Virus record (IMG/VR): IMGVR_UViG_3300020050_010026
Coordinates: 3,980-67,979 of that record
Origin: a virus
Direction: 5' to 3' (one strand)
DNA: 64,000 nucleotides
The notes under the pieces were generated by a model. It searched no databases, was not told the origin of the DNA, and saw only the letters and a list, made by a program, of their open reading frames with translations. This document shows, in pieces, positions 32,980 through 64,000 of the stretch. The position numbers and the translations under genes were made by a program. The first letter of the stretch is position 1; every line of letters begins with the position of its first letter.

Positions 32980-32987
32980 TTTATATT

Positions 32988-34952
32988 TTAATTTATAAAT
33001 TCTTTCATATTTTGCATAGTATTGTCTATAAAGGAAATAACCTTTACTGCAAGATTATTTTCTGAATATTTTAAAACTTTATTTCGTATTTGTTGAAAAT
33101 CTTTTATAGGTTCTGTGAAATCTTCATCACAAATATCTCTAATAATTTGTTCAACTTCTTCTTCTTGAGCAATCATTTCTTCTAGTAATAATTCATCATT
33201 TTGTTCTAAAATTTCTAAATTATCATTTACTTTGAAAAGTACATTCTCAAAATCAGAGATTTTATTTTCCATTGATAATTTTATAGGTTCTTCTTCTATT
33301 TTGTAATAATCTTCTTTCATATTTGAAAAATAAAGACTAGTCTTTGTATCAATTAAATTACCATGTTTAATATTATATATTTTTTCAGCACCAAGTACAG
33401 TTGTTGTACCTGAATAACTAATTCCATTTTTTACAATATTTTGTTGATTAATGTCTTTTAATTTGAAATTAAGATTTATTACAGGATGTACTGCCACATG
33501 AGATAATTCAATATAATCTATAAAACTACCAGGTTTAATCATAGAAAATTTATGATAAAAATGAGTATAATCCATAGAAGTTCTTATTTGAACACCTTCT
33601 ACAAAATAAAAAAATGAAGGATTTATACATTCTGAAGATTGAAATGGAATTTTACCTTTAACATTAATATCTTCAGAAATAAATGATTCACCATCAAATA
33701 CTTTGTCAACAATATAATAAAATCTTTCAGTTGCATCTTTTATAGTAGTCCCTATATTATAGAAACCATATTGATTTATCCATACATAAATACCAGTTAA
33801 TAAATGACCATTTCTAAACCATCTTAATTTATTAAAATACGGTATTGATCTATAATCATTTATATGTTTTAAAGGTTTTTCCTCATATATATTTATAAAT
33901 CCATTATCTTTGTTTACTTCTTTCAAAGCGGGAAGATTTATTAAACTTCTTACTTCTTCTTCCTCTTTTTTCTTTTTTGTATTAGTGTGAGAAGTTTCAT
34001 TATGATTTTGATAGTCAAATTCTTCAGAAAAAGATTCATAAGTATTAAAATAATAATTGTTTTGTTTACTATAACTTAAATTTTGAGTAGCATTACTTCT
34101 TGATATATGAATTAATTCTGCATTTTTAAAATCACCATCTGTAATTTTATAAACTACATTAGATTCAATATCAATGATATTATTATCATTACCTCCAATT
34201 GTTCGTAATGATTCCTCTAATGAGGAATAATACATTGAATTTTTATTTTCAATATATACAAATAATGGTCTTTCAGTTGTTTCATGAGTACTTACAGCCC
34301 AATCTTTTGATTTACCTTTAAATAAATATAAAACATTTGGAGATGTTGTATCTGTAAAAGCTAATGCAGCTCCTCCAATATAATCATTTAAAACTTTAAA
34401 ATTTTTATGTTTATATATTATTTCTAATAATATTTCAGAATCTATTTTATCTCTATTTACAACAACTTCTGTATCTAACTTATCGTAAAAGGTATTTTTA
34501 GCTGTTTTTTCAATATCATATTTTTTAGCAAGTTCAATATGATTTTTTAAAGTTCCATTATGTGTTCCTATAAATATAAAATCACCATTATTATCACCAA
34601 ATCCAAAAGGATGAGCATTATATACATTTACAGAACCAACACTAGATTGTCTTGTATGACCGATCACTATAGGAAATCTTTTTGGTTTTATATCTTTATC
34701 TACAATAAAATCAGTATATAGTTTATTACTATCAATTCCAATTTGAATATCTCCGTCATAGGAAATACCACAAGAACTTTTACCTCTTTCTATATTATAT
34801 ATACCTAATTTATCAAATTTATCTTTATTAAAAGATTTTGGAGTTTTTCCAGCAAATCCAAACAATCCACAATTTAATGTATTATGTTTAGGTTTGAAGA
34901 TATATAATCCAATATAATGTATTATCAATAATATCAATATTATTTGTATCAT
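32988..34952 (-). CDS. Class-II glutamine amidotransferase (Ntn hydrolase) domain fused to an unknown about 400-aa C-terminal domain; about 27-aa hydrophobic leader precedes the nucleophile Cys
   Basis: …TLN-CGLFGF (nucleophile Cys after a leader, as in PurF propeptides). GHTRQSSVGSVNVYNAHPF (GH-x-R…N-x-HP). GTHNGTLKN (HNG-x-I-x-N block of AsnB/GFAT/PurF). Confidence 0.55.
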   Translation of the reverse strand: MIQIILILLIIHYIGLYIFKPKHNTLNCGLFGFAGKTPKSFNKDKFDKLGIYNIERGKSSCGISYDGDIQIGIDSNKLYTDFIVDKDIKPKRFPIVIGHTRQSSVGSVNVYNAHPFGFGDNNGDFIFIGTHNGTLKNHIELAKKYDIEKTAKNTFYDKLDTEVVVNRDKIDSEILLEIIYKHKNFKVLNDYIGGAALAFTDTTSPNVLYLFKGKSKDWAVSTHETTERPLFVYIENKNSMYYSSLEESLRTIGGNDNNIIDIESNVVYKITDGDFKNAELIHISRSNATQNLSYSKQNNYYFNTYESFSEEFDYQNHNETSHTNTKKKKEEEEVRSLINLPALKEVNKDNGFINIYEEKPLKHINDYRSIPYFNKLRWFRNGHLLTGIYVWINQYGFYNIGTTIKDATERFYYIVDKVFDGESFISEDINVKGKIPFQSSECINPSFFYFVEGVQIRTSMDYTHFYHKFSMIKPGSFIDYIELSHVAVHPVINLNFKLKDINQQNIVKNGISYSGTTTVLGAEKIYNIKHGNLIDTKTSLYFSNMKEDYYKIEEEPIKLSMENKISDFENVLFKVNDNLEILEQNDELLLEEMIAQEEEVEQIIRDICDEDFTEPIKDFQQIRNKVLKYSENNLAVKVISFIDNTMQNMKEFIN

Positions 34953-40388: not shown

Positions 40389-40491
40389 AAGTTAAGACAG
40401 GATTCGAACCTGTAAGATATTGACCGTATCAAGCTCTTAATATAGTTTATCATTCTATAGAACTTTGTGTTTACCATTCCACCACTTAACT
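40389..40491 (-). tRNA. tRNA-like gene, atypical (103 nt): perfect 7-bp acceptor and canonical T-arm, long extra hairpin, non-canonical anticodon region
   Basis: Minus-strand read AGTTAAG…CAGG-TTCGAAT-CCTG-T-CTTAACT. Acceptor 7/7 bp, T-loop TTCGAAT, 3-bp D-stem GTG/CAC with a GG-containing D-loop. A 5-bp stem TATAG/CTATA has a 9-nt loop. A about 25-nt extra arm forms a 9-bp hairpin (type-II-like). No encoded CCA. Confidence 0.4.
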
Positions 40492-40664
40492 ATAAAACCA
40501 GTTTATACAGAGAGCTGGTATCTGAACATTTTTTAAGATACTATCTTATAGTAATGTTAACTACTAATGTTGAGAACATTTGTGTTGTAAAGGTATGCTT
40601 AAAATACTATTTATAAGTCAATCTTTCTACAATTCCTTTCTCAAGGGAACAACACATTTATTTA

Positions 40665-42383: not shown

Positions 42384-43366
42384 AATATGTTATCTCATAG
42401 GCTCTTTATCCTATGATTCTATATGTTACCATATAGTTCAGACTATATCTTCAGTACCGTGTACTGCTGGGATTTCGTGGATATATTATATTCTGTAATA
42501 AATGTGAGAGCCTCACACTTTTGATTGTTTTACTCGACACATACTTTTCGTATTGGTTTATATCAGCCAAACGCCTGCATCAGGTTCTACTCTCACATTA
42601 TTACAGTTTCAATATCTAGTCGTTCGACCTTCTATAATCATTTAAATTATAGCTTGGTACGGGATTGTCCTATTAGGATATTCCCCGTTTAACCCAGTTA
42701 CGTGACACATTTATTTTGGAAGTTTATATAACATTGTAGGATGTATATGTTCAATAACTAATTCTTTAAATGTATTATAAAATTTAGCAGGAAGATAAAT
42801 TTTATTATCTGACATTATATTAAAACGAATTTTAAATTTATCAAATAAAAAGTCTATAAAATCTTCAAGTTCTATTTTATTAAAACAATTTGTAGAAATC
42901 ATTATTGAATGAGATGTTTTATAACCATCATCCATAAACATTACAGCTAAAGATAATTCATTAAAATAGGAATATATCCCTTTAGATATAACCTTTTTTT
43001 TATCTTTATAAAACATGTGATACAACTGTAATAATTCTTTTTTATTACAAGTTTCTAAAGTAGCAGACGTATAAAACTTACCATTTCTTTTATCTGGTGT
43101 TTTTCTTGTCCATATTTTAAATTTTGGAGATAATGATTGAATCATTTCTTTTTTCCATTCACAATATTCTGCTTGTTTTGGACCATGATCACATTTAAAT
43201 CTTGGGTTTATACATGCTTTATCAATTCTTAAATGACCATCTCCTAAGACGCATCCTATTAAAAATTGAATTTCTTTTTTAGGTAAATTCATATTTTATA
43301 TATTTTAAAATACAAAGATACAAAAAATATTCCACATTTCCTAATGTTTTTTAACTTTTTTTGCCT
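42384..43366 (-). mobile_element. Group I self-splicing intron (983 nt) carrying a LAGLIDADG homing-endonuclease ORF
   Basis: Minus-strand core elements: P4/P5-like ACGGGGAAT…AATCCCG; P7 5' GGTCGAACGACTAG; P7 3' GAAGATATAGTCTGAAC (the conserved 'AAGAUAUAGUC' S element). Exon 1 ends in U (…CAACGTGAT|). Omega-G at 42384. Joining restores …ETQRD-ANVVVGLF…, co-linear with DnaB. Confidence 0.75.
42711..43292 (-). CDS. LAGLIDADG homing endonuclease (double-motif, intron-encoded)
   Basis: Two LAGLIDADG motifs: LIGCVLGDGHL and LAVMFMDDGYK. Located inside the group I intron. Confidence 0.8.
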   Translation of the reverse strand: MNLPKKEIQFLIGCVLGDGHLRIDKACINPRFKCDHGPKQAEYCEWKKEMIQSLSPKFKIWTRKTPDKRNGKFYTSATLETCNKKELLQLYHMFYKDKKKVISKGIYSYFNELSLAVMFMDDGYKTSHSIMISTNCFNKIELEDFIDFLFDKFKIRFNIMSDNKIYLPAKFYNTFKELVIEHIHPTMLYKLPK

Positions 43367-47515: not shown

Positions 47516-47911
47516 TTAATTCATTGTTGGTGTGAAATATCCTTGTTTAAAAGCTATCCAATCACCAGATTCTACAATTCTTTCTTTTGGTATATCATTT
47601 ACATAAATATACACACTTGCTTCACCATAAGGTGTTTCAATAGGTATTTTATCATAAAATGTATTATTACCACCAGGAGTATATCCTTCAAGTCGATCTA
47701 CTCTTTCAGCAGTTTTTTCATCTACTTCATATACTTCCATTGTTACAGATGTATTACCATCTTTTTTTAATCCAGGATAAAAACCTAAATCATAAAGACT
47801 AAATTCTGGATTAGTTTGAAAATCTCCTAAATAATTAGAGGTTGATAATAAATGATCATTACCCATCCCTTTCCTGAGGCTACCATACACCGATATTAAT
47901 ATTTTTTTCAT
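47516..47911 (-). CDS. Gamma-glutamyl cyclotransferase-like (GGCT/AIG2 family) protein, second copy
   Basis: YGSLRKGMGNDHLL…LGDF…YDLGFYPGL…VTMEVYEVDEKTAERVDRLEGY…YGEASVYIY is a classic AIG2/GGCT YGSL…EVY…D…EG layout. Confidence 0.55.
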   Translation of the reverse strand: MKKILISVYGSLRKGMGNDHLLSTSNYLGDFQTNPEFSLYDLGFYPGLKKDGNTSVTMEVYEVDEKTAERVDRLEGYTPGGNNTFYDKIPIETPYGEASVYIYVNDIPKERIVESGDWIAFKQGYFTPTMN

Positions 47912-54670: not shown

Positions 54671-55420
54671 TTATTTGTTGTTATTTAATTTTTCTTTTAC
54701 TAATTGTTTTAAACTTTCAGTTATTGCTTCTTTAGCCATTTTACTAATTCTTGGTGCAGGAATATTTAATGTATTATTTATAATGTCATTAATAGATAAA
54801 CAAGGCTTATTCATTAAAATATATTCTTCAGCTTTTTCTTTTGTTGAAAATTCTATAAAATTATCAGTAACATAAACTGTATTAATATGTTTTATTGCCA
54901 CTATATCAAATTTAGAGTTATGAACTCCATATGAATAATCACCATCAAAAATATCTACACCATCTTCAGTTGTGAATAATGGTTGTTTAGATTTTTTAAT
55001 ATTATTTAAATTATAATGCAATCTTGAACCATTTGGATTATTTGTATCATATAAAGCGGAAACCATACATTTATCATTTACAATATCAATTTTATTTATT
55101 GTATAATTTACATATTCACTAAAAACTTTATCACCAATAGTAAATATTTCACCATCTGACAGTCTTTTAACTGAATGAATTTTAAAATCTAATCTATGTA
55201 ATATTCCTTGATTATCTTTTTCTCTAAAAATATTATTGTTATTATCACTATAAGATAATATCTCATAATCTTTTTCAACAACTTCTTGCCAATCTTCACC
55301 TTTAATAATATCACCTAAAATTAAATTAGAATTTCCAATTAATGTTTGACATGATAAACCTGTTTTACCTCCTATTTTTATAACTTTATTTGTTAATTTA
55401 TGTTTAAATTTTCTTTCCAT
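54671..55420 (-). CDS. hypothetical protein
   Basis: ORF in a compact array. Confidence 0.4.
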   Translation of the reverse strand: MERKFKHKLTNKVIKIGGKTGLSCQTLIGNSNLILGDIIKGEDWQEVVEKDYEILSYSDNNNNIFREKDNQGILHRLDFKIHSVKRLSDGEIFTIGDKVFSEYVNYTINKIDIVNDKCMVSALYDTNNPNGSRLHYNLNNIKKSKQPLFTTEDGVDIFDGDYSYGVHNSKFDIVAIKHINTVYVTDNFIEFSTKEKAEEYILMNKPCLSINDIINNTLNIPAPRISKMAKEAITESLKQLVKEKLNNNK

Positions 55421-55469
55421 TTTATTAGGATATGTTAATTATTTTTCGTATATTTGTAAAAATTTTAAT

Positions 55470-55790
55470 ATGAAATCAACTCAAGAACAACGCTATATTT
55501 ATAATAAAAAATATAGAGAAAATAATATTGAATTAATTAAAAATCAAAAATTAATTGCAAGATATGGTATTATATTAGAAGATTTTAATAATCTTTTAAT
55601 TTTACAAAACAATAAATGTGCTATTTGTTTAAATGAACTTAAACAAGGACGTTCTACTCATGTAGATCATTGTCATAATTCTAATAAAGTTAGAGGATTA
55701 TTATGTGTAAAATGTAATCTTGCATTAGGTCTTCTAAAAGATAATATTGAAGCATTAGATAGAATATATAATTATTTAAAAAATACTTAA
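55470..55790 (+). CDS. HNH endonuclease (endonuclease-VII-like zinc HNH), freestanding homing-endonuclease candidate
   Basis: CAICLNEL…HVDHCH…NKVRGLLCVKCNLALG is a C-x-x-C…H-x-D-H…N…C-x-x-C-N layout. Lone plus-strand gene inside the minus-strand block. Confidence 0.7.
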   Translation: MKSTQEQRYIYNKKYRENNIELIKNQKLIARYGIILEDFNNLLILQNNKCAICLNELKQGRSTHVDHCHNSNKVRGLLCVKCNLALGLLKDNIEALDRIYNYLKNT

Positions 55791-55833
55791 TTTATGACAA
55801 TTCCTAATTATTCTTTAATTAATTTATATTTTT

Positions 55834-57198
55834 TCATAACTTAAAAATGTTTTTAGTTAATATTCTACATTGAGAATTTGTATTACCACTTCCTACATAT
55901 TCATAAAAAGCTACAGAATGACCATTAATATATTGTAAATCATAAATTTTTTTCTTACCATTATGGATAATATCACCAATTTCAAATCCATTATGTAATA
56001 CATATTTTTTAAATTGTTCAAGTGTGATTTCAGTATAACCTAATAGATTTTTAGGTTTATTGTATCCATAGCTTTTATCAGAAAACATACAACATGAATT
56101 ATTTTTAAGATATGCTACATTTTGATTTCTTCTATTATTTTCCCATTTATTTAAAATTTCAGCATTATCAACATTTCTTCGAACATACCATTTTTCAGGT
56201 AATTTGAAATCTTCTACAATTTGTTTAGATTCTGGATATAATTCAATTTTATCTAAACCAATACCATTTTTACCATGAATTTCAGTAATAGCACAAATAG
56301 CAGTTTTAGCATTATTCCATCTAAAACTTTTTATAGTCAATTTTCTACCTTTATTTGGTGAATTTTTAGTAAATACAGTAATTTTATCATTTAATTGATA
56401 AATAGCTCCTTCTGAAGATTCTACTCTAATTATTTTTCCAATATTTAAATCAATTCCTTCTTTTTCTAAAACTTTATCTTTAGGTTCTTCTAATTGTTCT
56501 TTTAAAACATATTGTTTAAATAGATCAAATGTTATTTCAGTATTACTTAATGTATTAAAAATAGATGTACAATGTACACCATTATAACCATAATACATAC
56601 CAATATTACCACTTCTTTCACCATCATTAGTATTTTTATTAATATAATCAATAACAGTTTTTTGATTTTCACTTGTCAATTTAATACACCATAATTCAGG
56701 TAACACAAATTCAGGTTCTTTAACTACAAATTGAGCATCATAAGCTTCTTTTGTTGATGGTTTAAAACGTTTCCAATTAGTTCCACACCAACCATTTGCT
56801 TTACCTTTTTCGTCTATAAAATTAAAAGTAGCTTCTAAATTATTTTTATTAACTATTTTATAAGTTTTACCTTTAATAAATTCTGCACTGTTTGCATTAG
56901 TTTCACCTATATATTCATAATATTCAGGAATAAATGTTTTCATAGCTTCTTCATAAGATATAAAACTATTAGCAGCGATACATACTTCAAGCCAATGTTT
57001 TTCTTCTGAAGTTGCTAATCTTAATTTACTAATATTAAAAACATTATCTTTATTTTTTCCAAATGTGCTACGATTATTTCCAATATAAAAACCTTTAATA
57101 CCTGTTTGATAATATTCAGTTTCATATTGAACAATATTTCCATTATTAGATGTGTAAATTTCACCTTTGATTAAATCTTTTTTTTTTAATTGTTTCAT
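55834..57198 (-). CDS. hypothetical protein with internal repeats (454 aa)
   Basis: Recurrent …KG(E/K)IY…N…I/V… segments, suggesting a tandem beta-repeat domain. Confidence 0.45.
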   Translation of the reverse strand: MKQLKKKDLIKGEIYTSNNGNIVQYETEYYQTGIKGFYIGNNRSTFGKNKDNVFNISKLRLATSEEKHWLEVCIAANSFISYEEAMKTFIPEYYEYIGETNANSAEFIKGKTYKIVNKNNLEATFNFIDEKGKANGWCGTNWKRFKPSTKEAYDAQFVVKEPEFVLPELWCIKLTSENQKTVIDYINKNTNDGERSGNIGMYYGYNGVHCTSIFNTLSNTEITFDLFKQYVLKEQLEEPKDKVLEKEGIDLNIGKIIRVESSEGAIYQLNDKITVFTKNSPNKGRKLTIKSFRWNNAKTAICAITEIHGKNGIGLDKIELYPESKQIVEDFKLPEKWYVRRNVDNAEILNKWENNRRNQNVAYLKNNSCCMFSDKSYGYNKPKNLLGYTEITLEQFKKYVLHNGFEIGDIIHNGKKKIYDLQYINGHSVAFYEYVGSGNTNSQCRILTKNIFKL

Positions 57199-57549
57199 TT
57201 TATTTATTTTAGTTAATTAAGAACAAACAACTTCATTGTTTATCCATTCTTCCATTTCATCTAAATAATGAATTTCATCTCTATCCATGATATTTTGATG
57301 TTTTAATTTTACAAATTTCGTATTGTTTATGTTCAATACCTACAGGTAAACCTATTACGTTTACACCTAACTGAAAGTATGTTACACATACTAATTTCCA
57401 CATATTCATATTTTATAATTATTTTAAGTTATTTTTAATTCATAATATTTAAAAAATGTGAGTTACTAATATATATCTGTTTTTACAGTTATACATTTTC
57501 ACTCACATATCAACTAACTAATCAAATAAACATTATGAAAGTTTATTTG

Positions 57550-57625
57550 GTGTTGTAACAGGGGTCGAACCTGCATCTACATAACACCCTGTTATATAAA
57601 TCTTACCCTTAGATATGATACAACA
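57550..57625 (-). tRNA. tRNA-like element (76 nt) with canonical acceptor/T-arm but non-canonical anticodon loop; possible pseudo-tRNA
   Basis: Minus strand: TGTTGTA…ATCT-AAGGGTA-AGAT…TATAA-CAGGGTG-TTATG…GCAGG-TTCGACC-CCTGT-TACAACA-C. Acceptor 7/7, D-arm with GG. The 7-nt loop has A at position 33 and a pyrimidine at 37. Confidence 0.3.
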
Positions 57626-57814
57626 ACTCCCTAATATTTAAACCATTGTTAATTTTGTACAATTAGTTTAAATGTCGACTTTTTTTTTTAATATTATCTT
57701 TGAATTTTCCAAAGACTTTCGTAAGATTTACCTTTTTTTCTAAAAATTAAAAACGATAATAAAGTTATTATGGGTATTACTATCATTGGAACAGTTTTAC
57801 AATACATCTTATTT

Positions 57815-58045
57815 TCATAATATTTTTTGATTTAAAAAGTTTATAATTTTTTTCTTTTGCATATGAATAAAAAAAGAAATAAACAATATGGAAGTAAGAC
57901 ATGTTAAAGCAAAGATTAAAGCTGCAAATATTTCAAAAGGTGTTGGATTTAATTTATTAAATAAATCAATATGTATAATTGTATATATGTTTAAATATAA
58001 TATATATATTAACATAAGTATTAATAATAAATGTTTTACTTTCAT
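57815..58045 (-). CDS. small membrane protein (two predicted TM helices; holin-like)
   Basis: MKVKHLLLILMLIYILYLNIYTIIHI… and …IFAALIFALTCLTSILFISFFI, followed by a basic tail. Confidence 0.35.
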   Translation of the reverse strand: MKVKHLLLILMLIYILYLNIYTIIHIDLFNKLNPTPFEIFAALIFALTCLTSILFISFFIHMQKKKIINFLNQKIL

Positions 58046-58377
58046 AATTTTAATTTTTTAAACTCAGAATATAAATAATCTACTGGATGAGATTCCCACC
58101 AACTTGATTGTAAAATAGAATTGAATTCGTAATCTAATTCATTATCATAATTTGGTAATTCTCCTAATTGTAACATTTTATCAGCTAAATGTGTCATACA
58201 AAATTCAAACCAATGAATTCTTGTAATATTTTTATTTTTAATAAAATATATATAACCGTCAGGTTCTAGATCATAATCATTCACACCTAAATATGTTTCA
58301 ATATATTCAGGAAATAATACTTTACACATTTCTAATAATTTAGATTTATGCTCTTCTGTTAATTCAATTGGTTTCAT
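58042..58377 (-). CDS. hypothetical protein
   Basis: ORF in a compact array. Confidence 0.35.
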   Translation of the reverse strand: MKPIELTEEHKSKLLEMCKVLFPEYIETYLGVNDYDLEPDGYIYFIKNKNITRIHWFEFCMTHLADKMLQLGELPNYDNELDYEFNSILQSSWWESHPVDYLYSEFKKLKL

Positions 58378-58646
58378 TTTGTTTGAAGTTTATCAAAATT
58401 AGATTTTAAATATTTTAAATTAGATTCTTTTTGTAATAATTCAATTTCTTGATTTTTGATTTGATTTTCTTTCATTTCAATTAAATTATTTTTTATTTCA
58501 TCTAAAATAATTAATTGTTGATGTGAATCCCAATTATCAAATATGTGTTGTGATAGTCTTTTAGCTTCCATTACAGCTAATTTACTAGTACCTGGTATAT
58601 AACATATAAATTTATATTTTATATATCTTTTAAAACGTTTAAACAT
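58374..58646 (-). CDS. hypothetical protein
   Basis: ORF in a compact array. Confidence 0.35.
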   Translation of the reverse strand: MFKRFKRYIKYKFICYIPGTSKLAVMEAKRLSQHIFDNWDSHQQLIILDEIKNNLIEMKENQIKNQEIELLQKESNLKYLKSNFDKLQTK

Positions 58647-58850
58647 GATAATCTATGTTAATTTAACGTTCATATTAAATGAACGACGATTGTTTCTAGC
58701 TACAGCATTAGCTAAATAATGTTTCAATTGTTCTTGTGATGTAAATTTAATTTCTCTTTTAAAGAAGTTAGGTTTACGATTACTGTTACTATTATTCGCA
58801 GTAATCTTTGGTGTGTTTTGTGTATTCATAATGTTTTTAATTTGTTTTAG

Positions 58851-59303
58851 TTAATTTAATTCTTTTATTGAAATGTTAATTTTATTACTTGTTCTTGGAT
58901 TTCTAAAATTGTAAATATGTTTCCAACCGTTTTTATCTAAAGTTTTAACTTCAGCTATATTGTCAGAAACATCTGTACATAATAATATTCCATATCCTAA
59001 TTCTTTAGCAATATCTATTCTAAAATTATTTAAAATAGTATTTACACCTTTATTTTTATAATTATTAGAAACAAAAACTCCTGTGCTAACACAAATACCA
59101 CAACAACCAATCATTTGTACTAATGTAAAATTAGATATTATTATTTTAGTATTTGTTACAGTAAATTTTAAACCGTTAGGATTATTTTTAACATAAATTA
59201 AAAGATTATATGTTAATTCTACCCATTTATTATCTAAAAAGATTTTTATTTCTACATCAGTTTTTAATAAATCTTTTAATTGTCCTATATATTTATCTAT
59301 CAT
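58851..59303 (-). CDS. GNAT-fold acetyltransferase-like protein (paralog B of 39827-40357)
   Basis: …GCCGICVSTGVFVSNNYKNKGVNTILNNF…GYGILLCTDVSDNIAEVKTLDKNGWKHIYNFRNPRTSNK; co-linear with paralog A. Confidence 0.4.
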   Translation of the reverse strand: MIDKYIGQLKDLLKTDVEIKIFLDNKWVELTYNLLIYVKNNPNGLKFTVTNTKIIISNFTLVQMIGCCGICVSTGVFVSNNYKNKGVNTILNNFRIDIAKELGYGILLCTDVSDNIAEVKTLDKNGWKHIYNFRNPRTSNKINISIKELN

Positions 59304-59638
59304 GATTGTAAAGATTCTAAAATTTTCATACCAATATGTTGTGATTCAACATTTTTTACTTTGGTAACTTCACTCCATGATTTTGACGATTCATATCTAA
59401 AATCATTTAATACAAAATTCCAATATAGGTTCCATAGATAATTAAAATAAGGTTTTGTTAAATAACCTAATTTGTTATACTTGTTTTTACATCTACTAAA
59501 TTCATCTTGTTGTACAAGACGTAAATGTTTGAATATTTCTTGTGATTCAATAGCTTTAATCATTGACATCACTTTAACTCCTTTATATCCAGCTTTTTCA
59601 AGCTCTGTTTTAGATATAAATTTTCTTTTTTTTTCCAT
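59300..59638 (-). CDS. hypothetical protein
   Basis: ORF in a compact array. Confidence 0.35.
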   Translation of the reverse strand: MEKKRKFISKTELEKAGYKGVKVMSMIKAIESQEIFKHLRLVQQDEFSRCKNKYNKLGYLTKPYFNYLWNLYWNFVLNDFRYESSKSWSEVTKVKNVESQHIGMKILESLQS

Positions 59639-59664
59639 AATGTTGTTAATTTTAATTAGTTAGT

Positions 59665-59913
59665 TTACCATTCTGTATTTGGATCATTACATGGTCTACC
59701 ATTAATGAATAATTCTGTACTAATAGAAGTATTTTTTATTAAAATACTATCAATTGATTGTGGTATATCAGATGTTTCTTCTAAATCATCTTCTGTAATA
59801 GTTCTTGTTGCTTTTTTAATTAATTTATCTTCAGCATATTTTAATCCGTAATAACACGTTTTCAAAATATCAAGTTTTTGTTTTGATAATTTTGTTAAAT
59901 CTAAATTTTTCAT
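59665..59913 (-). CDS. hypothetical protein
   Basis: ORF in a compact array. Confidence 0.3.
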   Translation of the reverse strand: MKNLDLTKLSKQKLDILKTCYYGLKYAEDKLIKKATRTITEDDLEETSDIPQSIDSILIKNTSISTELFINGRPCNDPNTEW

Positions 59914-60577
59914 AATGTTGTTAGTTTTAGTTTGTTATTGATATAATAAAAGAAATAGGTATTGTTTTTTCAAACTTTTTATCATCAAAAATAACATTTA
60001 CAGTATTAGTTTTATTGCAAAATGATATTTTATCTATTTTTGATATTATACCAGAATTATTCCATTCATCTTTATATTTTAATATCATAATTAGTTAAGT
60101 TTTAAACAGTTATTTAAATCAATAGTATTCCAAATATGTACATAAGTAAATTCACCATTTGGAAACCATAGTCTAAGATATTGAGGATTGCTCATAATTA
60201 AAATATTAAAAATAATGTTTCAATTATTACAATACAAATTAAAAATCTAATAGACATGTTAGCATTTTGTAATTGTATTTCTAATGGTAATTTTTTGTAT
60301 TCTGAATTTTTCATAATAGTTAATTGTTAGTTAATAATTTTTTAATGTTCAATAATAAAAAATAAGGGTCTAGATGTAAAAGACGGATTCAATATCTCTA
60401 ACATTTACGAAGACCCTTATTTTCGTTCTATTTAAGTGAGTGGCGTACTGCTCACAAATTTCTATTATATCATATAGACGGAGTGACTACGGGTTAATTT
60501 GTAAACAAATCGTTCCGACTGATGACCGTAACTGATAATATAATTTCATTCTCTGCCATTTTAGAGATTAAATATAG

Positions 60578-60650
60578 GGTGATAGGTGAGGGTCGAACTC
60601 ACATTTTTCTGAACCACAATCAGAGGCTTTACCCTTAAGCTACAATCACC
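60578..60650 (-). tRNA. tRNA-His (anticodon GTG) with 5' G-1
   Basis: Minus strand: g-GTGATTG-TA-GCTT-AAGGGTA-AAGC-C-TCTGA-TTGTGGT-TCAGA-AAAAT-GTGAG-TTCGACC-CTCAC-CTATCAC-C. All four stems pair. Anticodon loop is U-U-GUG-G-U. Extra 5' G opposite the C73 discriminator (His identity). Confidence 0.8.
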
Positions 60651-60680
60651 ATGTAAAAATATAAAAGAATTATATTTTTG

Positions 60681-60752
60681 TATTTCCAGAGAGAATTGAA
60701 CTCTCGTTTTTAGGTTGAAAACCTAATGTCCTAACCACTAGACGATGGGAAC
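60681..60752 (-). tRNA. tRNA-Glu (anticodon TTC)
   Basis: Minus strand: GTTCCCA-TC-GTCT-AGTGGTTAGG-ACAT-TTAGG-TTTTCAA-CCTAA-AAAC-GAGAG-TTCAATT-CTCTC-TGGAAAT-A. Resembles the bacterial tRNA-Glu D-arm (TCGTCTAGTGGTTAGGAC). One acceptor mismatch. Confidence 0.7.
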
Positions 60753-60811
60753 GGTTTCTGTATGCTTTACGTAAAGCTATGGTAGTACAGACACTATTAT
60801 TCCATTATTCT

Positions 60812-60938
60812 GTGGAGGTGCCGGCATCGAAACCGGGTCCATAAACAATTTCAATACAATAATATATTACAGCTTAGTTATAGATTTACGTGTTTAACTA
60901 CACATAGGTCAACTGATTAATCAGAATGACTCCACCAC
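60812..60938 (-). other. tRNA-like / hairpin-rich element (about 125 nt) of uncertain nature
   Basis: 3' part CCGG-TTTCGAT-GCCGG-CACCTCC-A resembles a T-arm plus acceptor. The 5' part GGAGTC…CTGATTAATCAG… forms a long imperfect palindrome. No canonical cloverleaf found. Confidence 0.25.
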
Positions 60939-61956
60939 TTCATTTAATCTAATGAAGAAATCTTAAAACAACTTAAAATTAAGCAGCAATTAATTCTTGT
61001 TTCCAAGAAAAATCACCACATATCACATCATTATTTAAAATGTTGTGAACTACTTCCATATTTGCTCTAACTTGAGCGTTTGTATTCTTGTCATTTATTA
61101 ATTCACCTTAGTTTACAGTTATCTCTCTGGCTGATTATTATATTTACTACTATCTATGTCAAATCCTGTCACCCCCTTAAAATAATCTCATTTTGATAGA
61201 ATGTGATTAGTATAACTATTTTCAATATCTTTATATAAATGATGTCACGAGAAACGTGCTTCTCTTACCCTATAGCGTACTAGGAGCATTTATAAAGGTA
61301 TTAAATGTTTAACCTATTTGAGAGTTTTATCATTGCAACTCACAAGTGTTTTCTTTTCTTCAGAAACCAATAGCACCCATTTAACATTGGGTACACCATG
61401 TTTTTATAAAATCACTTGTCCAAATTCTAGTGGAATGGTTACTATGTTGACGTACTTACAACACATGAACATCTTTACAATAAACACAACTGCTAGTACA
61501 GTTTATAATTTGGTGTGCGTACCTAATTCTCCACCTTCATTATTATTTATCTTCAAGCAAGTGATTATATTAAAAACATTGAAAAATACTAGGATTACTC
61601 CTTGGGTTTGCAATGGGTCGAACCCATACTACACACCTCAATCTTCTGTCAATTCAGAAGTAGTATCTTTTTATAAATTATACACCCTATGCGTGCATCA
61701 CATCTTTTTAGCACTTAATGTAGGTAAAATCTTATTATACATTATTCTTATGATTTATAAAATTCAATGTTTAACTTTTAATTTAATTTTGTTTATTACA
61801 ATCTTTACAATTTAAAAATTCTTTTTCATTTCCATGAATGATTTTATTAGTATTACAAAACCATTTCTTTTCATACGGAATAAATATTTCTTTAAAATCT
61901 TTATATTTATACAAACATACAAAAAACAATATCACGCAACTAAAAGGAACAAAACA

Positions 61957-62229
61957 ATGTTAAAAGCAACTGTAAAAACAAACAAAACTGAAACAATTAA
62001 AGGCACTGCAAAATCTGGAAAAGAATATTCCTTGATTGTTCAAAATGAAATTTATGTCACAAATGGGGAGGAACGGTTTCAATTGCCTATTACCCTTGAC
62101 GATAATCAGTCGCCGTATGAGCCTGGCGAATATCAATTTAGTGTTGAAGAAATGATACAAAAAGGTCGTTTCGGCCTAGAGGTAAAGCCATTTTTTCAGC
62201 CAAAATTAATAAAAATTCTAAAGCTTTAA
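61957..62229 (+). CDS. Filamentous-phage gene V-like ssDNA-binding protein (g5p)
   Basis: MLKATVKTNKTETIKGTAKSGKEYSLIVQNEIYVTNGEERFQLPITLDDNQSPYEPGEYQFSVEEMIQKGRFGLEVK aligns along its length with M13 gVp (…RQGKPYSLNEQLCYVDLGNEYPVLVKITLDEGQPAYAPGLYTVHLSSFKVGQFGSL…). AGGAA RBS 8 nt upstream. Confidence 0.7.
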   Translation: MLKATVKTNKTETIKGTAKSGKEYSLIVQNEIYVTNGEERFQLPITLDDNQSPYEPGEYQFSVEEMIQKGRFGLEVKPFFQPKLIKILKL

Positions 62230-62336
62230 CTTTGGAATGTATGAATTCCGAACTTCCGGAATACAAGCTTTTCTCGATTATTGCTTGAACAAAAAAAATC
62301 GAATTTCACTTAACTTTTAATTTTATAGGCAATCAA

Positions 62337-62534
62337 ATGAAAAACTTTTTAAAAAATGGTGGTTTAGTCCTTGTCGGTTCAACTGTAGCAATTCCTGCTT
62401 TTGCCGCTGTTCCTGCTTCTGTTACCACTGCACTTGGTGATATGAGCACTGACTCCATTACTATTGCGTCTTTGTCTTTTGTTGTTTTTATTGGTATTTT
62501 GGCTTTTACTTATTATCGTAGAGCTGCCAAGTAA
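62337..62534 (+). CDS. Inovirus major coat protein (g8p-like)
   Basis: 65 aa: signal peptide (…AIPAFA|A), short acidic segment, hydrophobic helix (IASLSFVVFIGILAF), basic C-terminus (YYRRAAK). Followed by a strong terminator, as for M13 gene VIII. Confidence 0.6.
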   Translation: MKNFLKNGGLVLVGSTVAIPAFAAVPASVTTALGDMSTDSITIASLSFVVFIGILAFTYYRRAAK

Positions 62535-62535
62535 A

Positions 62536-62568
62536 TACTAAGGGGGTGCAAGCCCCCTTTTTTTTTTC
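62536..62568 (+). terminator. Rho-independent terminator after the coat gene
   Basis: aagggggtgcaagccccctt hairpin followed by a T10 run. Confidence 0.8.
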
Positions 62569-62596
62569 TTATCAAAAAAAATTAAAGGTGATAAGC

Positions 62597-62962
62597 ATGG
62601 CTTGGTCATATAACGGATATTGCTACCCAACTCTTGAAAACATAGGTGACATTGTTAAATCAACTGACACTTATGTTTTATCTAATGGCTGGTCTTTTCC
62701 TTCTTCCTATACAGTGCAAGCTGGTACTGGTACGATCACTTATACTCTTTTGTATAAAGCTGGTGGTGCGACTACTGTTATGGGTTCTGTTCCTGGTGGT
62801 TCTTTTTCCCGTAATTATTCACCATGCACAAATGTTGGTTATTTAACGAATTATTCAGGTCTCGAGCTTACGGATGCTGTTTCAGTTTCTTGGATGGTTG
62901 TTCTTGTATGGGTTACTGCTTACACTTTTAAAATGTGGCGACAAGCTGCAAGAGGTTATTAA
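62597..62962 (+). CDS. hypothetical virion/minor coat protein candidate (122 aa)
   Basis: ATG at 62597 with AAAGGTG RBS. Ends with a hydrophobic helix (WMVVLVWVTAYTF). The ORF-track entry 62546-62962 is the same frame with an upstream extension. Confidence 0.4.
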   Translation: MAWSYNGYCYPTLENIGDIVKSTDTYVLSNGWSFPSSYTVQAGTGTITYTLLYKAGGATTVMGSVPGGSFSRNYSPCTNVGYLTNYSGLELTDAVSVSWMVVLVWVTAYTFKMWRQAARGY

Positions 62963-63036
62963 TGACTCCTGATTTTTATTTAATAGCTGTTTACATGGCA
63001 ATAACAGGTGCGGCATGGATTATATTCAACGGATAA
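62962..63036 (+). CDS. small hydrophobic virion protein (24 aa; g7p/g9p-like)
   Basis: MTPDFYLIAVYMAITGAAWIIFNG. ATG overlaps the upstream stop (TAATG). Overlaps the start of the g3p-like gene, as gVII/gIX do in Ff phages. Confidence 0.3.
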   Translation: MTPDFYLIAVYMAITGAAWIIFNG

Positions 63037-64000
63037 TACTTTTATTATTAATAACACCGGTTTCTTATGCCGCTGTTATGGATACATCTGGAAAATGGGT
63101 TGTTAAGCCTATTGGCGGAACTATGACAGTTAACCCAAGGGATATAAAAATCATTCCAACAATGGAATCAATGATTAATGATGCCTTCAGGAATTACAAT
63201 CCTGTTTCTCAAACGGCTCCGACATACCAAGCTTATAACGCCGGTGCGCAACCGGCTGCATCTGCTTCATCAAGAATGCATATACCTGTATCTGGCAAAT
63301 CAATTCCTGTTGATGTAAAGGGAATATTCAACAAAAGTAACATGGCGGCTGCCGCTCGTTTTGGTATGCGTGCATTACCTTATGCTTTTGCTGCTGGAGC
63401 AATATATGATTGGTTCACAAACTCTGGTTTTTCCGGTTCTGGTGATTCCATTAATAAAACCACTCCAGTTTATTCAAACTGTGAATATGCCGGTGCATAT
63501 ACTTCTTATGAAAGTTGTTTACAAACAATTGGCACAACTATAGGTTATTGTGAAAAGCCAACACCCGACTATTATGCTTGGTTTAGATACCAATGCGGCT
63601 CGGTAACTCAGTCATCAATTCCTGCAACTGATACCGATATTGAGCAAGGTTTGAATAATACTTCTTATGATCCTGTAGCCTCTATCCAGGATCTGACAAG
63701 TAAAGGTGTTATTCCTCAACCATCAGACCACCAGTTCACTTACCCACAATCAACCTCAGTTGGTGGGTCAACATCAACATTACCTGATGGTACTGTTCAA
63801 AATCAGGACACAACAATTAAGATTTCTGAAACTCCAACAACGGTAAATGGTACACCAACAAAAGAACTAACTATTATCAAAGAAACTGTAACTACAATAA
63901 CTAACACTAACAATACAACATCAACTACAACAACTGTAACTGCGCCTGATGTCCAACAGGATACGCAAGAACAGAAAACAGATTGTGACAAATACCCTCA
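63015..64000 (+). CDS. Inovirus adsorption/minor coat protein (g3p-like), 5' partial; continues beyond the window
   Basis: Open frame from ATG 63015 to the window end. Signal peptide MDYIQRIILLLLITPVSYA|A. Cys-containing N-domain. Thr/Asn-rich low-complexity linker (TTITNTNNTTSTTTTVTAPD). Confidence 0.5.
   Translation, partial: MDYIQRIILLLLITPVSYAAVMDTSGKWVVKPIGGTMTVNPRDIKIIPTMESMINDAFRNYNPVSQTAPTYQAYNAGAQPAASASSRMHIPVSGKSIPVDVKGIFNKSNMAAAARFGMRALPYAFAAGAIYDWFTNSGFSGSGDSINKTTPVYSNCEYAGAYTSYESCLQTIGTTIGYCEKPTPDYYAWFRYQCGSVTQSSIPATDTDIEQGLNNTSYDPVASIQDLTSKGVIPQPSDHQFTYPQSTSVGGSTSTLPDGTVQNQDTTIKISETPTTVNGTPTKELTIIKETVTTITNTNNTTSTTTTVTAPDVQQDTQEQKTDCDKYP

Follow-up and report, generated by a model that had tools for sequence, protein, structure and literature searches.

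A tmRNA gene with a long conserved tag, beside tRNA-Glu and tRNA-His genes, and aberrant tRNA scaffolds in a crAss-like phage genome

The 64,000-nucleotide stretch of viral DNA analyzed here (the "window") carries a minus-strand cluster of stable RNA genes at 60577–61176, in the order tmRNA, tRNA-Glu(UUC), and tRNA-His(GUG) (Table 1). We consider it probable that this Crassvirales phage encodes a working tmRNA together with tRNA-Glu and tRNA-His decoders, and that two further tRNA-like genes of the window, elements A and B, are non-decoding tRNA scaffolds.

Table 1 Features of the stable RNA cluster and of the two outlying tRNA-like loci, in window coordinates.
Feature	Position (nt)	Strand	Basis
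tRNA-His(GUG)	60577–60649 (with G-1, 60577–60650)	minus	ARAGORN; Rfam RF00005, 58.1 bits
tRNA-Glu(UUC)	60680–60752	minus	ARAGORN; Rfam RF00005, 64.1 bits
One-piece tmRNA (ssrA) gene, 364–367 nt	60810/60813–61176	minus	Rfam RF00023, 56.7 bits, E = 1.4e-19
tmRNA 3' hairpins, helix-2 3' strand, T-arm, and acceptor 3' strand (initially a "125-nt element")	60813–60938	minus	
tmRNA tag frame: resume codon GAC, 37 codons DKNTNAQVRANMEVVHNILNNDVICGDFSWKQELIAA, then TAA	60979–61092	minus	Rfam alignment and family comparison
tmRNA PK1 segment ATCAGCCAGAGAGATAACTGTAAACTAAGGTGAAT	61101–61135	minus	Nearly invariant in the family
Promoter-like conserved block TAGGTTAAACATTTAATACCTTTATAAATG, ~110 nt upstream of the tmRNA	61287–61316	minus	Common to relatives
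Element A, 103-nt tRNA-Leu-type scaffold	40389–40491	minus	Rfam tRNA, 42 bits (cut-off 29); syntenic homologs
Motif X, conserved pseudoknotted RNA just upstream of element A	40569–40661	minus	13 unique instances
Element B, 76-nt tRNA-Pro(GGG)-like gene	57550–57625	minus	Rfam tRNA, 23.6 bits (below cut-off 29)

Judging by its genes, the window derives from the genome of a crAss-like phage (Crassvirales). The best matches of its DNA polymerase are crAss-like phages, and the open reading frame (ORF) at 6778–14589 is a homolog of the virion RNA polymerase g066 of Cellulophaga phage phi14:2 (tblastn, E = 8e-167, 81% of the length), with the catalytic DxDxD motif present as DYDID at residue 1391. 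PHROGs returned no match for the three giant ORFs, the RNA polymerase being recognized subsequently by tblastn. The genome has a GC content of 24%, and its coding density in genetic code 11 is 89% across positions 1–60000, with the longest ORFs reaching 2603 aa. ORFs end in TAA (37), TGA (10), or TAG (4), i.e., all three stop codons terminate. GAA and CAU are used heavily, with GAA accounting for 1392 of 1471 glutamate codons; TTA makes up 1217 of 1572 leucine codons, and CCU is the main proline codon. Downstream of the tmRNA, the gene order is common to relatives L060, L067, and L054; upstream, it departs from that of the closest relatives, and phage-type conserved blocks reach at least ~61510. 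An inovirus-like module with a GC content of 35–46% begins near 61950.

Both tRNAs of the cluster were found by ARAGORN and by Rfam (RF00005 cut-off, 29 bits), in agreement with the two cloverleaves recognized in the initial annotation, including the G-1 of tRNA-His, which is encoded at 60650 on the minus strand and faces C73. They conform to the canonical elongator tRNA as defined here by RF00005 score, 5-bp anticodon stem, 7-nt loop, and U33. A U6:U67 mismatch is present in tRNA-His, the acceptor stem of tRNA-Glu includes G1:U72 and a C4:A69 mismatch, and CCA is encoded in neither gene. The two tRNAs would act as decoders for the heavily used GAA and CAU codons.

Next to these tRNAs, the initial annotation had placed a 125-nt tRNA-like element with a T-arm- and acceptor-like 3' end. 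This 3' end was correctly recognized, but the element is the 3' third of a tmRNA rather than a separate tRNA-like unit, and the gene reaches ~240 nt beyond the right boundary of 60938 originally assigned to the cluster. The RF00023 match is full-length (model positions 1–374) and exceeds the curated cut-off of 47 bits. In its sequence and predicted structure, the gene shows the acceptor stem, helix 2, and tag frame of a one-piece tmRNA, together with a predicted PK1 and a T-arm whose loop has 6 nt. In the acceptor stem, the 5' GGGGGUG pairs with CACCUCC, including G3:U70; the discriminator is an A at 60813, and the bases that follow are CAG, i.e., no CCA is encoded. The T-arm (CCGGU UUCGAU GCCGG) has a 5-bp stem and a loop one base short of 7 nt, and relative L067 likewise has a 6-nt T-loop, accompanied by compensatory changes in the stem. 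The window sequence aligns to PK1 of the RF00023 model, and PK1 variants in which CCAG...CTGG replaces CAG...CTG are compatible with one stem; otherwise PK1 is nearly invariant. No ORF of ≥40 aa overlaps the gene. In default mode, ARAGORN called only the two tRNAs of the window and not the tmRNA.

The 35-nt PK1 segment was found as an exact match in at least 69 viral contigs of IMG/VR, and 13 more family members, reached via a different motif, carry PK1 with 1–4 mismatches. Around PK1, the window and phi14:2 share 97.6% identity over 42 nt. Among 185,579 GTDB species genomes, the segment occurred in one contig, which is 4.9 kb long and phage-like, and the family was not found in any bacterial chromosome. 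Across these collections, the tmRNA family is virus-specific; this distribution, together with the crAss-like polymerase genes of the window and the gene order downstream of the tmRNA, marks the gene as viral, not host. ARAGORN calls a tmRNA in 42 of the 71 homolog regions, and an RNAalifold analysis of 18 family members revealed compensatory changes at 25 of 48 pairs, in the acceptor stem, helix 2, and the T-arm. Specifically, G3:U70 is present in all 18 members and acceptor positions 4–6 covary, while most of the ~20 pairs of helix 2 have compensatory changes. The window copy has the lowest RF00023 score of the family (other members, 77–87 bits). A group I intron interrupts or adjoins the tmRNA T-loop in relatives L060, L054, and L069, and the window copy is intron-free.

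The tag frame lacks a start codon and, in the window, ends in the codons GCU GCU UAA, for a C-terminus of QELIAA-stop. Family tags are 33–45 aa long, with AA-stop ends in most members and VA-stop in a few, and residues Q, A, N, M, and V, which make up a Q-x-x-A-N-M-x-x-V core, are invariant despite synonymous codon variation. Synonymous and non-synonymous codon differences stand at 2501:3304 in the tag frame, as opposed to ratios of 634:5113 and 401:5047 for the two remaining frames. This codon comparison shows the family tag to be under selection at the amino acid level, and in the tag frame only.

Upstream of the tmRNA, the conserved block recurs ahead of non-coding RNA or tmRNA genes in L105, L009, L010, L148, L126, and phi14:2, and we infer that it is a promoter. 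By analogy with phi14:2, the cluster would be transcribed early from this block and cut by host RNase P and 3' processing enzymes and, because no CCA is encoded, its ends would be completed by the CCA-adding enzyme. The tmRNA would then be alanylated by the host AlaRS via G3:U70 and brought to stalled ribosomes by SmpB, presumably that of the host (a tblastn search with an approximate E. coli query sequence gave no SmpB match in the window). Translation would resume at GAC and append the 37-aa tag, whose C-terminal LIAA resembles a ClpXP degron and whose conserved core probably serves as a further site of recognition. In the infected cell, ribosomes would thereby be freed and truncated proteins removed.

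The tmRNA gene of phi14:2 lies at 4031–4500 of its record, inside the g005–g006 junction (3911–4601, RefSeq numbering). This junction gives rise to a rightward transcript that is early, stable, and above most genes in level, and phi14:2 has been described as producing an early lncRNA that is already abundant at the earliest time point and has no assigned function (bioRxiv 10.1101/2020.03.07.982082). On this reading, in which the match is made via RefSeq gene numbers, the phi14:2 lncRNA contains the tmRNA gene.

Several features of the window copy, i.e., its 6-nt T-loop, its low RF00023 score relative to the family, and its omission by ARAGORN, would fit a decaying pseudogene. We regard decay as very unlikely, given that all helices are intact, that the tag frame is open and ends in the canonical AA-stop, and that ARAGORN does recognize the tmRNA of L067, which has the same 6-nt loop and compensatory stem changes. 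In L060 and L054, the closest relatives, the T-loop carries a group I intron, so the short, intron-less loop of the window may instead be an intron-loss or homing-resistant allele. Another explanation would make the gene a host ssrA or an attachment-site remnant, with the inovirus-like DNA to its right belonging to a neighboring host or element, and the initial annotation had raised remnants of tRNA-targeted integration. tmRNA genes are classic integration sites, shared gene order does change upstream of the tmRNA, and the inovirus-like module is compatible with such an event. However, the tmRNA is full-length rather than a 3' fragment, its family occurs in viral contigs and phi14:2 but is absent from the bacterial chromosomes among the scanned species genomes, and phage-type blocks persist upstream of it. 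In addition, 60300–64000 contains no repeated tRNA or tmRNA 3' end, the far end of any insertion lying outside the window, and an integration origin is in our judgment scarcely credible.

The tmRNA could also be active for a purpose other than generic rescue, through either a phage-specific fate of the tag (adaptor, localization, or protection) or competition with the host tmRNA for SmpB. The tag length would suit such a role, tags down to 8–12 aa occurring among the other viral tmRNAs of the collection. So would the maintenance at the amino acid level of a core that lies well inside the tag, at a distance from the C-terminal degron, and the abundance of the phi14:2 RNA from the earliest time point. 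Conversely, a tag that ends in AA points to ordinary proteolytic targeting, and the window yielded no identifiable adaptor or protease gene. Overall, we hold a special purpose of this kind to be unlikely, and favor a working tmRNA engaged in rescue and tagging.

Compared to known systems, the window gene resembles the bacterial one-piece tmRNA (SsrA, RF00023) in its tRNA-like domain with G3:U70, T-arm, helix 2, predicted PK1, start-less tag frame, and AA-stop. It differs in being virus-encoded, within a family absent from the scanned bacterial chromosomes, in the 6-nt T-loop and a shortened region downstream of the tag frame, and in the length of the tag with its conserved internal core, bacterial tags being mostly ~10 aa. 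The T-loop of the Clostridium botulinum tmRNA is reported to be interrupted by a group I intron (Williams 2002, tmRNA Website paper), which would parallel the introns in or next to the T-loop of L060, L054, and L069, unlike the intron-free window copy. Phage tmRNAs occur in ~2.3% of phage genomes, e.g., Methylophilales phage Melnitz and Cellulophaga phage Calle, and phi14:2 is among the entries of a survey table (PMC9004378, PMC8776804). These, too, are ssrA genes carried by viruses, located close to tRNA genes and presumed to act early (PMC9004378, PMC8776804), although the Melnitz-type tmRNA is two-piece and riboswitch-linked, unlike the one-piece tmRNA of the window.

At the level of sequence, elements A and B are tRNA-derived genes in which the acceptor/T-arm "top half" is maintained and the anticodon arms are unfit for normal decoding. 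They are most likely non-decoding tRNA scaffolds that serve as RNase P/Z processing or stabilizing elements. Their perfect 7-bp acceptor and 5-bp T stems, as well as the 9-nt loop of element A and the A33 of element B, are as initially described, and covariance-model scoring, which had been proposed as a check, supports element A and not element B (Table 1). A search of 1.44 Mb of DNA from related phages yielded 36 anticodon-aberrant tRNA scaffolds of this type, compared to 0 in shuffled sequence, and exact IMG/VR searches with the 3' halves of elements A and B gave no match.

Element A combines an AGUUAAG/CUUAACU acceptor stem with a D-arm, a long variable arm, and a T-arm, and its anticodon arm holds a 19-nt hairpin (40441–40459) between positions 32 and 33, which makes the arm two-tier, with the 9-nt loop at its apex. 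Its Rfam tRNA match includes 23 inserted bases in the loop, and the element falls outside the canonical elongator definition. Syntenic homologs are present in L073–L078, relatives located via the primase gene. Pairing is kept in 98.8% of the acceptor/T-arm frame, and 9 of its 12 pairs have changed on both sides. L078 and L077 differ by the presence or absence of an insertion at the same 32/33 site; L074 and L075 have, at the same locus, unrelated middles without any anticodon loop. The insert helix (UAUAG/CUAUA) lies wholly within the insert, with no exon–intron bulge-helix-bulge, and a scan of 20 ORFs revealed no splicing endonuclease or ligase domain. In intron mode, the ARAGORN assignments of element A and its homologs contradicted one another (Asn-att, Leu-tag, and Leu-caa), and a tRNA that it called with a 2.6-kb "intron" was spurious. 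Just upstream, motif X has P1 and P2 stems that covary across its unique instances and matches no Rfam family. The AGTTAAC upstream of element A was considered as a duplicated acceptor strand or integration scar and rejected, since in other phages these bases are part of the conserved sequence that continues motif X on its 3' side.

Element B has the anticodon loop CAGGGUG (A33, U37) and a D-stem lengthened to 6 bp. With its sub-threshold score and A33, it too lies outside the canonical elongator definition; among 115 canonical tRNAs from related phages, 108 carry U33. It is syntenic with the canonical tRNA-Pro(UGG) of L060 (6995–7067), of which it is, by this comparison, a diverged counterpart. 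Alternatively, it could be a decaying tRNA-Pro, in line with the pseudo-tRNA suggested for this position at the outset. Folding stabilities do not exceed those of shuffled sequences for element A (z = −0.77) or motif X (z = −0.47), and do so weakly for element B (z = −1.85, 14 of 200 shuffles folding at least as well), so that the case for both elements and motif X is a purely comparative one.

The initial annotation had proposed that such odd tRNA-like genes might be suppressor or frameshift tRNAs, in this case for recoded late genes. In favor of this idea, stop-codon recoding is well known from crAss-like phages, the apical loop of element A has 9 nt, and with 18 nt (not 19) removed from the anticodon loop of element A, the remainder could read as anticodon UUA. 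However, neither element has a clean CUA, UCA, or UUA anticodon loop, the standard code accounts for the high coding density and the long ORFs, and TAA, TGA, and TAG all end ORFs; since no stop-codon recoding is seen in the window, the idea is unsupported. The 9-nt loop moreover sits on a 10-bp two-tier arm, which would be too long for ribosomal decoding geometry, and we consider suppression exceedingly improbable.

Ordinary decoding would be restored if element A became a tRNA-Leu(UAA) upon removal of a 19-nt mini-intron, and if the A33/U37 loop made element B a nuclease-resistant tRNA-Pro. Without its hairpin, the loop of element A reads C-UUAAG, matching the prevalence of TTA among leucine codons, and the presence or absence of the hairpin in L078 and L077 is as expected for such an insert. 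Yet this removal leaves a 6-nt loop, the middles of L074 and L075 are unrelated and offer no anticodon loop, and we know of no bacterial or phage machinery that removes such short inserts, nor was any found in the window. Archaeal tRNA introns occur at non-canonical positions including 32/33 and in this respect resemble the short anticodon-loop insert of element A; unlike them, it has a self-contained insert helix and belongs to a phage with a bacterial host, and the ORF scan revealed no splicing endonuclease. For element B, the main proline codon would be readable by a GGG anticodon via wobble, but A33 removes the U-turn base, and the Rfam score is below the tRNA cut-off. Nuclease-evading phage tRNAs with anticodon-loop changes are documented, and they resemble the two elements in having loops off the host consensus (PMC10264068, PMC11555353). 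Those tRNAs, however, retain the 7-nt loop, U33, and decoding, whereas element B has A33, element A a 19-nt hairpin, and many relatives no loop at all. Taken together, decoding by either element seems improbable to us, and non-decoding scaffolds remain the preferred reading.

Viral RNAs of a comparable kind exist. The tRNA cluster of phage T4 includes stable RNAs of unknown function (species 1 and 2, rnaC/rnaD), and murine gammaherpesvirus 68 has tRNA-miRNA hybrids; by description, these are tRNA-end-like viral RNAs located by tRNA genes, processed by tRNA enzymes and non-decoding, processing being predicted for elements A and B. A broader and rather doubtful proposal is that a marine/freshwater crAss-like clade maintains a toolkit of non-decoding tRNA-scaffold RNAs, comprising the long-tag tmRNA, hypervariable-hairpin tRNA-Leu-type frames, and motif X. 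The frames would keep the acceptor, D-arm, and T-arm, with the anticodon region swapped for hairpin cassettes, including the small hairpin at 32/33. Host tRNA enzymes would make and stabilize these scaffolds, and anticodon-independent synthetases could charge them; the scaffolds might then deliver variable hairpins as small RNAs, or act as decoys in a conflict over host translation.

A phage tmRNA is of an already known kind. The puzzling part of this system is the aberrant tRNA scaffolds, which recur across related phages and, along with motif X next to element A, make up a defined set of candidates for new viral RNA biology. Both types of gene are readily missed or mislabeled by annotation tools, with ARAGORN skipping the window tmRNA and Rfam labeling element A a plain tRNA. 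A literature search returned no paper on the Crassvirales tmRNA family, its long conserved tag, or the identity of the phi14:2 "lncRNA". The peptide-selected tag of 33–45 aa raises the question of whether a specific adaptor or protease is recruited by its internal motif, or whether tagged proteins meet another fate. On the present reading, one of the two abundant, early, and stable lncRNAs of phi14:2 gains an identity as a tmRNA, and ribosome rescue and protein tagging may belong to the early takeover program across this branch of the Crassvirales.

The initial annotation is confirmed in part, and its interpretation has partial support. The core of the locus is a phage tmRNA beside two ordinary phage tRNAs. 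Over the whole window, ARAGORN returned only two genes, tRNA-His(gtg) and tRNA-Glu(ttc), which Rfam also found, bearing out the two clean cloverleaves of the initial annotation. The G-1 claimed for tRNA-His is present (60650) and faces C73, with a U6:U67 mismatch in the same tRNA; tRNA-Glu has G1:U72 plus a C4:A69 mismatch, and neither gene encodes CCA. Since GAA and CAT dominate their codon pairs in the genome (GAA 1392 vs GAG 79; CAT 235 vs CAC 45), both tRNAs serve heavily used codons, and because both are missing at the corresponding position of one related locus (L067), they form a variable cassette. The 125-nt tRNA-like element described next to them (about 60814-60938) is not a separate gene: it forms the final third of the tmRNA and contains the T-arm, two hairpins, and the 3' strands of both helix 2 and the acceptor stem. 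The interval 60088-61318 is free of overlapping ORFs of ≥40 aa.

Coordinates of features in the window and in related phages (L numbers are fetched loci of related phages; PK1 is a pseudoknot of tmRNA)
Feature	Position	Strand	Remarks
tmRNA, full-length	60810-61176	-	Rfam RF00023, 56.7 bits, cut-off 47, E=1.4e-19
PK1 segment	61135-61101	-	after helix 2, before reading-frame resumption
Tag reading frame	GAC (61092) to TAA (60981-60979)	-	37 codons, DKNTNAQVRANMEVVHNILNNDVICGDFSWKQELIAA
tRNA-His(gtg)	60577-60649	-	Rfam, 58.1 bits, cut-off 29
tRNA-Glu(ttc)	60680-60752	-	Rfam, 64.1 bits, cut-off 29
Element A, tRNA match, 103 nt	40389-40491	-	Rfam, 42 bits
Element B	57550-57625	-	TGTTGTA TC ATATCT AAGGGTA AGATTT A TATAA CAGGGTG TTATG TAGAT GCAGG TTCGACC CCTGT TACAACA C
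Motif X	40569-40661	-	conserved pseudoknotted RNA motif
Motif X copies	L001 (phi14:2) 5840-5979; L004 2740-2881; L009 1837-1978; L010 551-696; L011 1370-1505; L032 11362-11514; L047 6824-6962; L063 10496-10651
Motif X copies	L073-L075		upstream of element A homologs
Intron-split tmRNA genes	L060 4620-5375; L054 9380 to end; L069 3280-3538		group I intron in T-loop
Example scaffolds	L003 8108-8203; L004 3465-3574; L042 1480-2014; L069 3891-3998, 9314-9419; L135 4852-4997, 5941-6069
Conserved block TAGGTTAAACATTTAATACCTTTATAAATG	61316-61287	-	common to regions upstream of non-coding RNA/tmRNA genes of relatives and phi14:2
Second conserved block	about 61353-61322		in the same upstream regions of family members and phi14:2
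ssDNA-binding protein	61957-62229	+	phrog_1199
Phage_Coat_B major coat protein	62337-62534	+	PF05356
ORF	62597-62962	+	inovirus-like module
Signal-peptide ORF	from 63016, past window end	+	inovirus-like module

Near the 3' end of the tmRNA, CACCUCC pairs with the 5' end GGGGGUG, giving G3:U70, and the discriminator A (60813) is directly followed by CAG, so that CCA is not encoded. The T-arm (CCGGU-UUCGAU-GCCGG) has a loop of 6 nt instead of 7. A 6-nt T-loop also occurs in L067; its stem carries compensatory differences (GCGGC/GCCGC), and ARAGORN accepts its tmRNA. A group I intron interrupts the tmRNA T-loop in the closest relatives of the window, L060 and L054, and in L069 as well; the L069 intron was detected by Rfam (RF00028, 91.8 bits), and those of L060 and L054, which have intron sequence in common, were identified by reading the sequence. 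The tmRNAs of the window and L067 are intronless with a T-loop one base short, and the short loop of the window may reflect loss of an intron or an allele resistant to homing.

We then took 42 distinct full-length tmRNA genes (314-469 nt) from the fetched loci. An RNAalifold consensus of 18 of these predicted 48 pairs, with compensatory changes in 25, covering the acceptor stem, ~20 helix 2 pairs, the T-stem and a hairpin past the stop codon; G3:U70 was present in 18/18. Tag frames start with GGC, GGA or GAC, span 33-45 codons and end in AA-stop in most cases and VA-stop in a few. An invariant Ala-Asn-Met sits inside a 14-codon core whose Q, A, N, M and V are fixed while their codons vary (GCT/GCA, AAC/AAT, GTA/GTT/GTG). 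Pairwise codon differences in the tag frame were 2501 synonymous vs 3304 non-synonymous, the corresponding ratios in the other two frames being 634:5113 and 401:5047. These ratios and the fixed core residues show selection on the tag at the peptide level, at a good distance from the degron-like C-terminus. Among other viral tmRNAs, recovered with a second-motif search, are some with tags as short as 8-12 aa (e.g., DNTYRVAA and ANDESYALAA), which makes the long ANM tag a family trait.

The tmRNA could also be read as a host gene or, as the initial annotation proposed for the tRNA-like genes, as the remnant of a tRNA-targeted integration. The surrounding genes are those of a phage: the window has a GC content of 24% and three ORFs that are 2199-2603 aa long. 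Of these, the middle ORF is homologous to g066, the virion RNA polymerase of Cellulophaga phage phi14:2 (E=8e-167; 28% identity over 81%), and has the catalytic motif DYDID. The DNA polymerase of the window finds its best matches in crAss-like phages. The phi14:2 and window tmRNAs are 97.6% identical across 42 nt, and at this site of phi14:2 ARAGORN calls a tmRNA of 470 nt. Exact copies of the 35-nt PK1 segment are present in at least 69 IMG/VR contigs, many about 100 kb long, but in only one of 185,579 bacterial and archaeal species (one genome each); there the copy lies on a 4.9-kb contig that has an identical viral counterpart and was binned into a Flavobacteriales MAG. Downstream of the tmRNA (55000-61200), gene order is common to L060, L067, L054 and L008. 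Given these phage genes, the viral PK1 contigs, the single, phage-like species-genome match and the conserved gene order, we rejected the host-gene and att-remnant readings; the tmRNA is a phage gene.

Transcription of one member of this family has probably been seen before. In phi14:2, two long intergenic junctions, g004-g005 and g005-g006, behave unusually (Drobysheva et al., bioRxiv 10.1101/2020.03.07.982082): both are transcribed rightward above the level of most genes, and their transcripts, termed "long non-coding RNAs" of unknown function, are present from the earliest time point onward without declining. In the RefSeq record, which follows the numbering of that paper, g004 is 2194-2904 and g006 is 4602-4901, and a removed ORF (3590-3910) fills the g005 slot. 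Mapped by these gene numbers, the g005-g006 junction (3911-4601) probably holds the tmRNA (4031-4500, plus strand). Phi14:2 is listed among tmRNA-bearing phages in an ARAGORN survey (PMC9004378, Table S1); our literature search found no paper on this tmRNA family, its tag or the lncRNA link.

The g004-g005 junction, source of the other abundant lncRNA whose function is unknown, contains the phi14:2 copy of motif X, which in the window lies just upstream of element A, one of two isolated tRNA-like genes. The motif consists of GTGTTGT, the P2 stem, the loop CTTGAGAAA, the P2 return strand, a variable hairpin and ACAACAC AAATGA GTTCTCA(A/G)C. Covariation of both stems, P1 and P2, is seen across 13 unique copies, and the loop TTGAGAA could form pairs with TTCTCAA on the 3' side. 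In many phages the tmRNA follows motif X at a distance of 100-200 nt; no family in Rfam 15 matches the motif.

Conserved blocks upstream of the tmRNA indicate that phage-type DNA reaches at least 61510. A block at 61400-61510 is common to the window and L046, and a T-arm-like palindrome, ATGGGTTCGACCCAT, lies near 61615-61630. The 600 nt of 61230-61830 (about 30% GC) hold no credible ORF and may encode a further non-coding RNA. From about 61950, GC climbs to 35-46% and genes are inovirus-like, with a strong terminator hairpin (GGGGGTGCAAGCCCCC) and T-run after the coat protein gene; a JGI contig of 1354 nt (L071, sample 3300020049) matches 62054-63407 at 99.8% identity. The inovirus-like module could be a filamentous phage inserted in the crAss-like genome, or an assembly or concatenation artefact. 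Elsewhere, the replication module includes a LAGLIDADG_2 homing endonuclease ORF (42711-43292(-), PF03161, E=2.4e-31) adjoining a 326-nt gap (42385-42711); at the gathering threshold, Rfam detects no group I intron anywhere in the window. The same module (31066-34952; 47516-47911(-)) has amidoligase-like (phrog_2443), glutamine amidotransferase-like and gamma-glutamyl cyclotransferase-like (PF06094) ORFs, which may be part of a peptide or nucleotide-modification pathway.

Of the two isolated tRNA-like genes, elements A and B, element A scores above the Rfam tRNA cut-off and element B, at 23.6 bits, below it. Element B has a 6-bp D-stem, anticodon GGG, U37 and the A33 originally noted. It sits where L060 has a canonical tRNA-Pro(UGG), with aligned 3' ends, and position 33 is U in 108/115 and A in 3/115 canonical tRNAs of related phages. 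The tRNA-Pro counterpart, the sub-cut-off score and the rare A33 point to either a decaying tRNA-Pro or a specialised one, possibly nuclease-resistant (PMC10264068).

Element A reads AGUUAAG UG GUGG AAUGGUAA ACAC A AAGUU C, then a hairpin insert (UAUAG AAUGAUAAA CUAUA), then UUAAG AGCUU GAUACGGUCAAUAUCUU ACAGG UUCGAAU CCUGU CUUAACU U. The scaffold is of tRNA-Leu type: its D-arm is Leu-like and its variable arm long. The 19-nt hairpin (40459-40441) falls between loop positions 32 and 33, and the loop minus the hairpin is C-UUAAG. In L073-L078 the intergenic region preceding the primase gene carries homologs at the corresponding site; pairing in their acceptor and T-stems is 98.8% (slid controls, 35-52%), with both sides changed in 9/12 pairs. 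Their middles are unrelated and include, for example, D-loop hairpin inserts, 40-nt variable arms or a complete lack of an anticodon stem. L078 and L077 differ by a 17-nt hairpin (CCCAA AAGAUUA UUGGG) at the 32/33 site, its loop resembling AAUGAUAAA of element A, and this difference looks like an insertion polymorphism.

A search through 1.44 Mb of sequence from 158 related loci, for perfect acceptor stems of 7 bp adjoining a G+C-containing T-arm with a TTCRA loop, yielded 36 distinct elements uncalled by ARAGORN, and 0 in three shuffles; these criteria bias the counts to perfect stems, and the syntenic L073-L078 set is the unbiased test. The D-arm GGCGGAAUUGGUAGACGC is common to many of the 36, as are recurring frames (AGUCAGG/CCUGACU, GAUUGAG/CUCAAUC, UCCAGAG/CUCUGGA), and 25/36 have discriminator A. 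The elements conserve tRNA-Leu-type frames (acceptor, D-arm and T-arm) around middles that are hypervariable and range from 19 to about 100 nt. Several scaffolds adjoin tmRNAs, often in tandem, and some are scored as tRNA by Rfam. The suggestion that such genes are suppressor or frameshift tRNAs is unsupported in these 64 kb: code 11 ORFs cover 89% of positions 1-60000, and TAA, TGA and TAG each terminate ORFs.

Phage tmRNAs are already known from ~2.3% of phage genomes. What sets this find apart is the long, peptide-selected tag, the probable identity with a phi14:2 lncRNA and, above all, the maintained anticodon-aberrant scaffolds.
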